Positions 34,478-37,724 of a DNA stretch of 64,000 nt are shown piece by piece. A program made the position numbers and the translations under genes. Location of the stretch: positions 7,975 through 71,974 of the forward strand of contig JBBSIZ010000006.1 of the NCBI GenBank assembly GCA_038257735.1, in the 5' to 3' direction. This DNA is from Sphingomonadales bacterium. GTDB taxonomy: Bacteria > Pseudomonadota > Alphaproteobacteria > Sphingomonadales > Sphingomonadaceae. The notes below the pieces were generated by a model that was not told where the DNA came from, searched no databases, and was given only the letters and a program-made list of their open reading frames with translations. Numbering within the stretch: position 1 is the first letter of the stretch; every line of letters starts with the position of its first letter.

Positions 34478-34729
34478 CTATTCCTCGCCCATCCGAAGTG
34501 CCGCGATGAACGCCTCCTGCGGGATGCTCACGCTCCCATATTCGCGCATTCGTTTCTTGCCCTCTTTTTGCTTGTCGAGGAGCTTGCGCTTGCGCGAGAT
34601 GTCGCCGCCGTAGCATTTGGCGGTGACGTCCTTCCTCAGCGCCGCGGCCGACTGATTCCGCTCGGCGATATAAGCGATGACGCTTCTGAGGTCTTCGCGA
34701 GCGGAAGGCCGCCAGACGAGCTTCAACAT
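34478..34729 (-). pseudogene. Chimera: ParE N-terminus fused in frame to a duplicate of the LepA C-terminus
   Basis: [28 protein letters not shown] + [14 protein letters not shown]...MGEE. 34478-34646 is a direct repeat of 35871-36039. Confidence 0.9.
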
Positions 34730-34731
34730 GG

Positions 34732-34911
34732 TTAGGCGGGTCTGCCCTTGCGCTCGACGATCGCCCGCATCTCGGCCATCACTTCGTCATGGGGGATGCT
34801 GGGCCGTTCGTCTGCCAGAGATGCCGCCACCTTGTCCGACAGCCACTTCTCATAGGCGACGGCCTCTTCCGGCGTGTCGAACTCAGAAATGAGGGGCGAG
34901 TGCTCATTCAT
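34732..34911 (-). CDS. PaaA2/StbC-like antitoxin, copy 2
   Basis: [59 protein letters not shown]. Immediately upstream of the ParE fragment. Confidence 0.85.
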
Positions 34912-35041
34912 GTCCGCCTCATAGCGGAAGCGGGCTCCCGCGCCAACAAGGTGCCCGTTCCATACTAACTTCGGATACGACTCGGCCTCGCCTTGCCGCT
35001 TCGCCGGGTGAGGGTTAGTTTTGGCGCAGTCGGAGACGAAA

Positions 35042-35137
35042 ATGGACCGCCGTCCGCCAGGCCTAGGCCCCGCCGCCGAGGCCTTCGCGCGGGTCGCCGC
35101 CCGGATGGCGGAGTATGAGGCGAAGCGTGGCGCTTGA
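35042..35137 (+). pseudogene. Internally deleted antitoxin plus the first codons of a ParE
   Basis: MDRRPPGLGPAAEAFARVAARMAEYEAKRGA*, overlapped by gtggcgcttgaggttcgc (MALEVR). Confidence 0.7.
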
Positions 35138-35177
35138 GGTTCGCTTCCTTGCTTTAGTGCAGCCATTGCACTAGAAC

Positions 35178-35402
35178 ATGCCTCGGCTACAGCGCTTTTC
35201 CGCCTGCGAGATCGCGATGTTTTTCGCCGATCATCCGCCGCCGCATTTCCACGTGCTGGGGCGCGACGGAGCGGCGCAGGTGCGGATCGATACGCTGGAG
35301 GTGATCGTCTCGAGCGGGCGAATCGATCTTCGCGAGGCGCTCGACTGGGCGGCCGAGAACATGAAGCTGCTCGAGGCGAAGTGGCGGGAGCTAAGCGAAT
35401 GA
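35178..35402 (+). CDS. DUF4160 family protein (putative toxin)
   Basis: MFFADHPPPHFHV...ALDWAAENMKLLEAKW. Confidence 0.85.
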   Translation: MPRLQRFSACEIAMFFADHPPPHFHVLGRDGAAQVRIDTLEVIVSSGRIDLREALDWAAENMKLLEAKWRELSE

Positions 35403-35830
35403 GCATCGGCAGGATCGAAAGTGTCGCGATGAGGGCAAAGTCCGCGCTGGTCGTGACCTGGGACGACGGTTGCCGCGCCGAGATCGACCTCGCTCCGATC
35501 ATCGCCGACCATCCGAAGCTTCGCCCGCTCGCGGATCCGGATTCCTTCCCCGTCCGCTCGGACGATGGCTGGTCGGTCGAATGGCCGCATTGCGGTATAG
35601 ATCTCGGCTCGCCGCAGCTGAGGCGCTGGGCAGACGAACAGCGGGGAGAGGTGATGTCGGCCACCGCCTTTCGCGCCTGGATGCAGCGGCATGGCCATAC
35701 GCTCGACGCCGCCGCCGAGGCGCTCGGCCTCTCCCGCCGCACCGTCGCTTATTATCTCAGCGGCGAGCAGCCTGTCCCGAAGACGGTCATGCTGGCCACG
35801 GAAGGGTTCGACAAAAGGCAGGCGGCCTGA
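35399..35830 (+). CDS. DUF2442 + HTH protein (putative antitoxin)
   Basis: LVVTWDDG, GWSVEWP..IDLGS, and a C-terminal HTH (LDAAAEALGLSRRTVAYY). Confidence 0.85.
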   Translation: MSIGRIESVAMRAKSALVVTWDDGCRAEIDLAPIIADHPKLRPLADPDSFPVRSDDGWSVEWPHCGIDLGSPQLRRWADEQRGEVMSATAFRAWMQRHGHTLDAAAEALGLSRRTVAYYLSGEQPVPKTVMLATEGFDKRQAA

Positions 35831-35833
35831 ATC

Positions 35834-35860
35834 CCCCGACCCCGCCGAAGTACCACTTCG
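35834..35860. other. Motif copy 3 (CGAAGT-ACC-ACTTCG)
   Basis: Lies between the DUF2442 stop and the lepA stop. Confidence 0.7.
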
Positions 35861-35870
35861 ATGAGATTGG

Positions 35871-37724
35871 CTATTCCTCCCCCATCCGAAGCGCCGCGAT
35901 GAACGCCTCCTGCGGGATGCTCACCGAGCCGTATTCGCGCATTCGTTTCTTGCCCTCTTTTTGCTTGTCGAGGAGCTTGCGCTTTCGGCTGATGTCGCCG
36001 CCGTAGCATTTGGCGGTGACGTCCTTCCTCAGCGCCGCGATCGTTTCGCGGGCGATGACCTTGCCGCCGATCGCGGCCTGGATCGGGATCTTGAAGAGGT
36101 GCCTGGGGATCAGGTCCTTCAATCGCTCGCACATGTGGCGCCCGCGCGCTTCGGCGGCCACGCGGTGGACGATCATGCTCAGCGCATCGACCGGCTCGTT
36201 GTTGACGAGGATGTTCATCTTGACGAGGTCGCCCTCCCTATGCCCGATCTGGTGATAGTCGAAGCTGGCATAGCCGCGGCTGATGCTTTTCAGCCGGTCG
36301 TAAAAGTCGAACACCACTTCATTGAGCGGAAGCTCGTAGGTGAGCTGGGCGCGGCCGGCGACATAGGTGAGGTTCTTCTGGATTCCGCGCCGGTCCTGGC
36401 AGAGCTTGAGGATCGGCCCCAGATATTCGTCGGGAACGTAGATGACCGCCTCGATCCACGGCTCCTCGATGCTCTCGATCCGGTTGGGATCGGGCATGTC
36501 GGCCGGGTTGTGGAGCTGGACGATTTTGCCGAGCCCTCCCTCCCGGGACGCATCCTCCTTCGAATGCGAAAGGTGGATGTTGTAGATGACGGACGGCGCC
36601 GTCGTGATCAGGTCGAGATCATATTCGCGGGTCAGCCGCTCCTGGATGATCTCGAGGTGAAGGAGCCCCAGGAAGCCGCAGCGGAAGCCGAAGCCCAATG
36701 CCGCGCTGGTCTCCATCTCGAACGAGAAGGAAGCATCGTTGAGGCGGAGCTTCGAGATGCTCTCGCGAAGCTTCTCGAAATCCGCGGCGTCGACCGGGAA
36801 CAGGCCGCAGAAGACCACCGGCTGGACGAGCTTGAACCCGGGCAAGGCCTCCGCGGCGGGCCGCTTGGCGTCGGTGATGGTGTCGCCGACCCTGGTTTCG
36901 GTGATGTCCTTGATCTGCGCGGTGATGAACCCGATCTCGCCCGGGCCCAATTCGGGGAGCTGCTCGATCTTCGGGCGGAAGGCTCCGACCCGGTCGACCA
37001 GATGATTGGTTCCGGCGGCCATGAAGGCCACGTTCTGCCCCTTGCGGATCGCGCCGTCGATCACCCGGACGAGGATGACCACGCCCAGATAGGGGTCGTA
37101 CCAGCTGTCGACCAGCATCGCCTTCAGCGGCGCCGCGCGGTCCCCCCTGGGCGGCGGGATCCGGGTGACGATCGCCTCCAGCACCTCGGCGATCCCGATC
37201 CCGGTCTTGGCGCTGGTGAGGACGGCCCCCCCTTCGGTCCAATGGCCCGCGGCGGGCAGGCCGACGATATCCTCGATCTCCTTGCGGACCTTTTCGACCT
37301 CGGCCGCGGGCAGATCGATCTTGTTGATGACGGGAACGATCTCATGGTCGTGCTCGATCGACTGGTAGACGTTGGCCAGCGTCTGCGCCTCCACCCCCTG
37401 GGCGGCGTCGACGACGAGGAGCGCGCCCTCGCAGGCGGCGAGGCTTCGCGACACTTCGTAGGCGAAATCGACATGGCCGGGCGTGTCCATCAGGTTGAGG
37501 ACATAATCCTCGCCGTCCTTCGCCCGATAGTCGAGCCGGACCGTCTGAGCCTTGATGGTGATCCCGCGCTCCTGCTCGATCTCCATATTGTCGAGCACCT
37601 GGCTGGTCATCTCGCGCTCGGTCAGCCCCCCCGTCGACTGGATCAGCCGGTCGGCCAAGGTACTTTTCCCATGATCTATGTGCGCGATTATGGAGAAGTT
37701 GCGGATTCTGCTGAGGTCGGTCAT
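35871..37724 (-). CDS. lepA: Elongation factor 4
   Basis: [49 protein letters not shown]. Confidence 0.98.

Follow-up and report, generated by a model that had tools for sequence, protein, structure and literature searches.

A repeated lepA 3' end around a small toxin-antitoxin unit in a Sphingomonadales genome, and similar scars behind lepA in related species

In a stretch of 64,000 nt from a Sphingomonadales bacterium (the window; GenBank assembly GCA_038257735.1, contig JBBSIZ010000006.1, positions 7,975 to 71,974), the gene lepA is followed by a second, displaced copy of its own 3' end. The unit inserted between the body of lepA and this displaced copy is 1,393 nt long and comprises the working lepA tail, a hairpin, DUF2442 and DUF4160 genes, an antitoxin remnant, a PaaA2 antitoxin gene and a parE stub. 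The duplication of the lepA end is confirmed, and at least one in five of the species sampled has similar scars downstream of lepA, the comparison set being 156 species representatives of the genus Allosphingosinicella, some members of which are named Sphingomonas. The explanation favoured here, which we regard as rather probable, is that homology-anchored illegitimate recombination added a xenologous allele behind lepA, replacement of the resident one being disfavoured by toxin-antitoxin addiction. Below, the window's own genome is G000, its contig is C6, and relatives are given by their G numbers.

The repeated lepA end and its junction

The lepA gene (35871..37724, minus strand, from the list of open reading frames, ORFs) is intact and encodes 617 aa, which align from residue 1 to 617 with LepA of relatives at 85-98% amino acid identity. 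Repeat search and alignment delimit its working 3' end, tail A (35871..36039, minus strand), and the displaced end, tail B (34478..34646, minus strand). These are direct repeats of 169 nt with 93% identity (family D2 in the repeat search of the window), tail A being the proximal copy and tail B a 5'-truncated one of 56 codons plus stop; no other lepA tails occur in the genome (3.19 Mb, 80 contigs). The alignment has 11 mismatched bases in 7 codons. By codon, 49 are identical, 7 synonymous and none non-synonymous, and both tails translate to the same 56 residues. The differences, in lepA sense, are TCG CGC / AGC CGA, TAT GGG AGC / TAC GGC TCG, GCA/GCG and GGC/GGG, including two reciprocal three-base serine switches (TCG/AGC). 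At the junction edge 49 nt are identical, a stretch present exactly twice in the window with none expected (100 shuffles), and the tails also hold an identical block of 57 nt. Beyond the stop codon a weaker homology between the two copies continues for about 40 nt and includes a 6-7-bp stem with compensatory changes. A diversity-generating retroelement was considered as the source of the differences and rejected, because the mismatches involve all four bases rather than being adenine-specific and are all synonymous.

Tail B is fused in frame to the start of a toxin gene, some 29-30 codons of parE. The parE stub (34647..34729, minus strand; ORF list, Pfam and alignments) consists of codons 1-27 and two bases of codon 28, and the resulting fusion ORF (34478-34729, minus strand) is 83 aa long, with a LepA_C match at E 8.7e-24 and a sub-threshold ParE_toxin match at E 0.0036. 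Its residues 1-30 are 73% identical to residues 1-30 of a bona fide ParE of G137 (91 aa, Pfam E 8.4e-17), and the alignment ends at the junction. The first-pass annotation of this DNA, made from the letters alone, had described the 169-bp repeats with 11 mismatches, all synonymous and including two serine switches, the 49 identical bp nearest the junction, the in-frame fusion to a ParE N-terminus, and a cargo of antitoxins plus DUF4160/DUF2442 between the repeats; alignment, codon count and Pfam bear out each of these.

At the junction (34640..34646) the two genes share 7 nt, CGCGGCG when read in the sense of lepA, a microhomology between parE codons 28-30 and the lepA codons for I-A-A. Both parents can be recovered from relatives, whose parE reads TCG/GTG GCC GCG GCG AGC CTG and whose lepA reads ATC GCG GCG CTG AGG preceded by ACG; the window has GCC GCG GCG CTG AGG. 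In the genus search parE-side alignments begin at query positions 200-205 and tail alignments end at 207, the overlap being the 7 nt CGCGGCG. The join is thus one between otherwise unrelated sequences at a microhomology within the range of 3-10 bp, and by our own calculation at least 7 nt would be shared at a random join with a chance of about 1e-3. No alignment spans the junction among the 156 genus genomes, and an exact 30-mer across it has no match in metagenome contigs or species-representative genomes. Because the edge of the repeat lies inside the parE reading frame, what could be taken for an element end is a broken gene, and breakage at a GC-rich microhomology is the mark of illegitimate recombination rather than of an element end.

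The 49 identical nt had been proposed as the shared core of an integration site, a proposal that falters on two counts. The edge of the stretch is the microhomology inside parE, and the identity is statistically unremarkable. If 7 of 56 codons differ, none of them falls among the first 16 with a probability of 0.08, and the stretch evolves more slowly across species than the rest of the tail (86% identity vs 79-80%).

Arrays behind lepA in related species

A search with the tail only gives at least two matches (range 2-5) in 33 of the 119 genomes with a match; this count includes the unpublished G065, and no conclusion rests on G064-G066. Adjacency was verified in 24 genomes. Each of these has one to three additional, 5'-truncated lepA tails no further than about 3 kb past the end of lepA, alternating with ParE/PaaA2 or DUF4160/DUF2442 cassettes. 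There are three tails in G112 and four in G149, with a different ParE/antitoxin or DUF cassette between one tail and the next; matches to the tail number two to five in G110, G097, G075, G083, G077, G137 and others, and the single-contig genome G160 has a displaced copy of 84 nt. In G016 lepA is followed by the hairpin and then by convergent ParE/antitoxin genes, the empty-site form of the distal context in the window. The DUF4160/DUF2442 cassette with hairpin and lepA tail is also present in G021 (87%) and G149 (82%), in both of which the tail adjoining it has itself been pushed away from lepA by newer insertions. The association of the DUF pair with lepA is not confined to metagenome-assembled genomes (MAGs), since two isolates, Sphingomonas sp. 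ZT3P38 and S. qilianensis, also have the pair facing lepA in convergent orientation. In G158, G122 and G086 the DUF4160/DUF2442 pair stands upstream, not downstream, of lepA.

Displaced tails in these species differ from the working ones almost exclusively by synonymous changes. Counts of synonymous/non-synonymous differences are 7/0 in the window, 32/0 in G075, 25/0 in G110 and 17/0 in G083; in G112 they are 13/5 and 21/4, and in G149 8/5, 9/2 and 18/8, the outermost tail of G149 being the most decayed. A displaced fragment is not under selection for LepA function, and since both copies differ almost only synonymously, the differences must have arisen while each was the working end of lepA in a separate lineage. 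The codon pattern indicates that displaced tails derive from functional lepA genes of other lineages. Between neighbouring species tails are 72-90% identical as against 90-95% for the lepA body, a higher tail divergence that fits repeated import of foreign tails. The idea that tail A travelled together with the DUF cassette was rejected, as tail A is no closer to the DUF-adjoining displaced tail of G149 (80%) than to the working tail of that genome (86%).

A further kind of tail exchange is seen in five species (L023 in G021, L081 in G137, L083 in G083, L090 in G077 and L093 in G078), where, at the lepA stop, a conserved module of about 105 nt replaces the native last 45 nt or so of lepA. The module consists of a recoded lepA tail of lower GC3, resembling lepA of other genera, and a conserved stretch of 58 nt that contains two short stems, GTGCTG..CAGCAC and CGTGC..GCACG; Rfam has no match to it in the one locus searched (L081). 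A family-wide search for a donor of the 58-nt insert with recoded tail gave none; it returned one more genome of the genus, and other genera match the tail part only. The module is a small example in support of imported foreign tails. A literature search gave nothing that seemed relevant, by title or abstract, on lepA as an integration site together with toxin-antitoxins.

Several features recall an integration site. The inserted 3' end restores the target gene, direct repeats surround the cargo, and the cargo varies among relatives. From the window alone lepA had been read as an att site whose resident element was reduced to antitoxins and the DUF pair, had lost its integrase and might still be excisable in trans. 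Comparison of the lepA-downstream regions of relatives upholds part of this: insertions have occurred repeatedly at the 3' end of lepA, bringing small toxin-antitoxin cargo that varies, displaced tails and a replacement tail, i.e. the site is an insertion hot spot. The absence of variable cargo in relatives, which the first-pass annotation had named as refuting its view, is thus not what they show. The part that calls for a site-specific element, with lepA as the attachment site of an integrative element now decayed, finds no support. No integrase-bearing element is found at the site in the loci of 55 relatives or on contig C6. Searches with phmmer/hmmsearch and five integrases of the window's own genome gave no recombinase match in the 4,968 ORFs (660 kb, 7-20 kb around lepA) of those 55 loci, and no recombinase is among the 25 most frequent of 72 Pfam families in 122 neighbouring ORFs. 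Tyrosine recombinases are absent from contig C6 and from the lepA contigs of G112, G110, G149, G137 and G083. Serine recombinases (PF00239) are absent from the lepA contigs of G112, G110, G149 and G083, and G000 has only a sub-threshold match, on another contig. Although they carry arrays, G112, G110 and G083 each show just two PF00589 matches genome-wide, none of them on the lepA contig; judged by their count, these two are presumably XerC and XerD.

An integrative element using the lepA 3' end as its attachment site, whether decayed in place or a satellite that carries cargo only and relies on an integrase gene at another locus, would account for the classic topology of intact target, repeated 3' end and cargo between. 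It would also account for the frequent reuse of the site with older copies pushed outward, as in tycheposons at tRNA genes (bioRxiv 10.1101/2020.12.28.424599), and for the partial clustering of tail lengths and the conservation of junctions within G149, G110 and G112. Against it stand the missing integrases, an integrase acting in trans having no positive support, and the small recombinase complement of G112, G110 and G083. The break points speak against it as well. The 5' ends of displaced tails are scattered over some 250 nt of lepA, roughly 40 to 290 nt upstream of the stop, rather than sharing one repeat boundary. Counted from the end of the stop codon, they lie at 288, 277, 225, 198, 169, 145, 139, 137, 124, 89, 54 and about 41-47 nt; the clustering among them leaves this result not fully conclusive. 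With the window's own edge lying in parE at a microhomology and the 49-nt core without significance, an integrative element is thought improbable here. For excision of the unit, RecA acting on the identical blocks of 49 and 57 nt would suffice, with no integrase in trans, and a RecA crossover between the tails would leave LepA unchanged because all differences are synonymous.

The inserted unit and its likely arrival

Parts of the inserted unit have counterparts in the locus that lies beyond tail B. Convergent with lepA is a gene with DUF2442 and helix-turn-helix (HTH) domains (35399..35830, plus strand; Pfam DUF2442 4.8e-6, HTH_31 8.6e-7), whose product is 89% identical in amino acids to that of G021 and 83% to that of G149. 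It is overlapped by 4 nt by the DUF4160 gene (35178..35402, plus strand; Pfam DUF4160 3.9e-11). The overlapping pair is, by Pfam, a predicted toxin-antitoxin system of the dhiTA type, as predicted for DUF4160/DUF2442 in Dickeya dadantii (PMC8198452). Before it lies a decayed PaaA2-like antitoxin gene with an internal deletion and a frameshift, followed by the first 8 or so codons of ParE (35041..35149, plus strand; repeats D3, D8, D9 and sequence reading). The same repeats place its intact counterparts at 33409-33614 and 34050-34166, and the decayed antitoxin/ParE stub also precedes DUF4160 in G021. The unit ends with an intact PaaA2-family antitoxin gene that has no toxin left (34732..34911, minus strand; Pfam PaaA2 1.9e-15) and the parE stub.

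The resident locus begins with an intact ParE toxin gene convergent with tail B (34144..34446, plus strand; Pfam ParE_toxin 5.5e-17), and a convergent ParE occupies the same place behind lepA in G016, G153, G093, G112, G097, G075 and G149. Its PaaA2-like antitoxin gene (33918..34154, plus strand; PaaA2 2.4e-4, below the cut-off) overlaps it by 11 nt. Two further antitoxin-like genes (33724-33921 and 33421-33639, plus strand) each have the motif CATAAACGAACTTCGCAT in front, and a second PaaA2 gene (32968-33147, minus strand; Pfam PaaA2 5.9e-18) is followed by a decayed parE start. This rest of the resident locus (32968..33921; repeats D1 and D12, Pfam) is ordered as in G153, G093 and G077, the full order ParE(-), antitoxins(-), PaaA2(+), ParE(+) being found in G153, G093 and, behind its own displaced tails, G077. 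The surroundings of tail B match those that lepA itself has in G016, G153 and G093. ParE and PaaA2 domains occur in adjoining small genes in the window, as expected of a type II toxin-antitoxin system.

Unit and resident locus share one architecture: a tail, a hairpin, convergent toxin-type genes, one or more antitoxins and a co-directional PaaA2-parE pair. In the repeat search of the window their parts are paralogous at 72-84%. Because the gene order is the same in both, the earlier view of a reduced element is not upheld, and the unit reads as a second, foreign version of the resident locus rather than as a stripped-down island. The co-directional parE behind PaaA2 is disabled differently from species to species, by a stop codon, by frameshifts or by truncation with other DNA (L076 in G075, L079 in G121, L080 in G093, L090 in G077). 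PaaA2 is intact beside these variously broken parE genes, and the toxin would therefore have been lost repeatedly while the antitoxin was kept.

A shared architecture could also follow from tandem duplication in situ, from the tail to parE codon 29, by illegitimate exchange at the same 7-nt microhomology between the resident co-directional parE and lepA, with the proximal copy later replaced by a foreign allele in ordinary homologous recombination. The paralogy of 34724-34946 with 32960-33182 (78%) and of the antitoxin pieces, in the same gene order, is what such a duplication would leave, and the type of junction fits it equally well. It requires two events where one suffices, however, and for the second the right-hand crossover would have to fall within tail B or within the parE stub, which is no longer than 87 nt. 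Without selection, tail B should have gained non-synonymous changes, of which there are none, and divergence is very uneven, the tails being 93% identical and the PaaA2 region 78%. Duplication in place is accordingly held to be unlikely.

Under the favoured explanation, donor DNA from a related sphingomonad would have carried lepA, tail A, the DUF cassette, PaaA2 and parE, and would have paired with the recipient through the conserved lepA, a homologous anchor in which the crossover would be invisible. The far donor end, inside the co-directional parE, would have joined the recipient lepA 169 nt before its stop at the 7-nt GC-rich microhomology. The product would be a lepA that remains intact with a donor tail, a truncated donor parE, and a recipient tail pushed downstream together with its intact ParE/antitoxin pair. 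No site-specific recombinase would be required; the join could be made by homology-facilitated illegitimate recombination (HFIR), a process known mainly from laboratory crosses, or by an equivalent microhomology join. Clean replacement of the resident cassette would remove the antitoxin and is expected to be counter-selected, so that additive products would accumulate: cassettes would stack rather than swap because replacing an active resident pair takes away its antitoxin and only additive products survive. The repeat, its microhomology junction, the purely synonymous divergence, the recurrence in relatives and the lack of detectable recombinases nearby are observed; the direction of transfer, the single step and the role of addiction we infer.

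Some observations weigh against this explanation. The synonymous-only divergence of the tails shows that each has a past of its own as a working gene end; the anchoring crossover in lepA was not located. Sliding identity against 15 relatives has no step and hence gives no mosaic boundary; at just about 89% identity in lepA DNA, even the nearest genomes are too distant for one to be mapped. Tail B is assigned as native by gene order only; by sequence distance the polarity is ambiguous, neither tail being clearly closer to the tails of the nearest species and both units being about equally distant from relatives. Tail lengths cluster near 41-54, 84, 139-145 and 277-288 nt, and near-identical junctions with diverged interiors could reflect shared descent with later cassette exchange, or preferred sites. 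The recombinase searches consisted of Pfam tallies and five query proteins, which a novel or distant trans-acting recombinase could escape. Lastly, no contig in four public runs spans the junction, and the genome is apparently a low-coverage soil MAG.

This last point bears on the assembly itself, in which two co-existing strains that differ downstream of lepA, or a chromosome and a circle of 1.39 kb, might have been merged into one contig at the identical blocks of 49 and 57 nt. As an apparent soil MAG the genome has a depth of about 5-7, no public contig spans 34646/34647, and a contig of another run joins 34475 directly to 35873, which resembles an empty site with one side of only 24 nt. 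The probable source run has exact, short contigs (34300-34591, 34917-35218, 35621-35834 and others) and no cover at 34684-34875. For an assembler to produce it, however, the parE-stub/tail junction must exist in real DNA, whose genome also needs a complete lepA; the clusters of tail variants lie 50-60 nt from one another, a distance that a single short read covers; and dozens of assemblies made independently have comparable stacks, single-contig genomes such as G160 among them. An artefact is considered very improbable.

The conserved junctions raise the question of whether displaced tails act in recombination themselves. The 60-nt stretches that precede the displaced tails of G149 are 85-93% identical and the cassette interiors 39-63%, and G110 and G112 are alike in pattern. 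One possibility is that a circle of tail plus cassette, released from a donor array by recombination between two of its tails, was inserted by a single RecA crossover in the recipient lepA tail. A single crossover with a 3'-terminal gene fragment yields exactly this topology, the repeats hold identical blocks of 49 and 57 nt, and the conserved junctions with swapped interiors in G149, G110 and G112 suggest tails used as recombination arms. Such a history would make the parE-stub/tail junction older than this genome; against this, the junction occurs in none of the collections searched, and tail A does not resemble the DUF-adjoining displaced tail of G149 more than its working tail. An origin from a circle of this kind is given little credence for the window. 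A wider and more tentative proposal, on the doubtful side, is that displaced tails are portable homology arms of a cassette system that is anchored on lepA and driven by RecA with no integrase, in effect a 'homology integron'; this is put forward because junctions are conserved around diverged interiors in G149, G110 and G112 and because displaced tails are protein-perfect. In such a system toxin-antitoxin modules might, equally tentatively, be inserted, exchanged between species and amplified between tails, with addiction blocking their removal.

Illegitimate recombination on a homologous anchor, as favoured here for the window, has parallels in known systems. HFIR makes joins at 3-10 bp of microhomology in transformable bacteria (PMC6382021, citing de Vries and Wackernagel 2002). 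The window is like it in having one end in conserved homologous DNA (lepA), the other at a GC-rich 7-nt microhomology, and no mobile-element enzyme; unlike it, the process here is deduced from natural genomes, the join lies inside the anchor gene and leaves a truncated tail, and it recurs at one locus across a genus. Islands at tRNA and tmRNA genes and the tycheposons of Prochlorococcus likewise keep the target intact, flank cargo with partial 3' ends, push older insertions outward and let remnants pile up. The lepA arrays differ from them in that no cis integrase is detected in the 55 relatives' loci or on contig C6, in their variable break points, in the window's junction, a microhomology within a broken parE, and in a cargo of only 0.1-1.4 kb. 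Many transfer hotspots are free of mobile elements, with recombination in the core genes beside them (Oliveira, Touchon and Rocha 2017, PMC5635113). The lepA locus resembles such core-gene-bounded hotspots, and chromosome curing, in being a variable region beside a core gene without recognisable mobile elements where core-gene recombination would drive turnover, and differs in leaving countable scars and in a cargo almost only of toxin-antitoxin modules, which would resist curing. Chromosomal integron arrays share the small promoter-bearing toxin-antitoxin units, the repeated spacer and the growth next to a fixed point. At lepA the spacer is a housekeeping gene tail of varying length in place of attC, and there is no sign of IntI, attI or attC, with no tyrosine recombinase nearby and no Rfam match. 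The cargo genes belong to the Pfam families of ParE/PaaA2 (ParD-like) modules and of dhiTA; unlike those modules, the window holds one complete ParE, the others being stubs or toxinless antitoxins, with activity predicted.

How accessory genes enter hotspots without mobile elements is still argued from statistics. At lepA each event seems to leave a datable scar, a truncated and protein-perfect tail of a universal gene, so that one locus would record successive interspecies transfers with their break points and order. It would also be a concrete, testable case of toxin-antitoxin modules whose removal is lethal, so that alleles accrete where they would otherwise be replaced. Annotators should note that small cargo between direct repeats of the 3' end of a gene is alone not evidence of an integrase-driven element.

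Hairpins, motifs and neighbouring genes

Hairpin A (35846..35860; CGAAGT-ACC-ACTTCG on the plus strand, 11 nt past the lepA stop) and hairpin B (34453..34469; GCAAAGT-ACC-ACTTTGC on the plus strand) were identified by sequence reading and alignment. In lepA sense they are CGAAGT-GGT-ACTTCG and GCAAAGT-GGT-ACTTTGC, respectively, and differ by compensatory changes. The stem-loop N-C-(A/G)-AAGT / GGT / ACTT-(T/C)-G-N follows lepA tails in 9 genomes (8 relatives and the window's own), with four compensatory stem variants. A dispersed REP-like family was ruled out, since the genome has only four copies of the core, two of them at this locus, one at 5350-5360 of the window and one on contig C33. The third copy in the window (5330-5365) lies in an unrelated divergent intergenic region and carries a flank of about 10 nt like the 3' end of ParE. 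The hairpin therefore seems to be part of the ParE cassette rather than of lepA, and may be its terminator or operator. Rfam gave no match at E up to 1 in the window locus or the G137 locus.

The motif ATGCGAAGTTCGTTTAT, which holds the palindrome CGAAGTTCG, lies at 33210-33242 and 33623-33655 of the window, upstream of the convergent antitoxin genes. It also stands upstream of displaced tails in G112 and G149 (L073, L077), is confined to this locus in its own genome, and is probably a promoter or operator of these cassettes. The half-site CGAAGT is common to this motif and the hairpin. A short element, CTCCTTCGACAGGCTCAGGACAGGGC, with variants, is found inside displaced lepA tails of two species (in lepA-sense extract coordinates, L074 of G110 at about 1400-1450 and L083 of G083 at about 780-830 and 1395-1415) and looks like a small dispersed repeat.

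On the far side of the resident locus, at 30317-32814, a C5-methyltransferase-like ORF and an overlapping ORF of 374 aa break synteny with G021 and G016. We take the two to be a probable restriction-modification pair. They adjoin the decayed parE start at about 32960, which makes this another break point of the variable region. Directly upstream of lepA, at 37772-38457, the ORF list has what reads as a PIN-type (VapC-like) gene overlapped by a small ORF that resembles an antitoxin; if these are such a pair, toxin-antitoxin genes lie on both sides of lepA.

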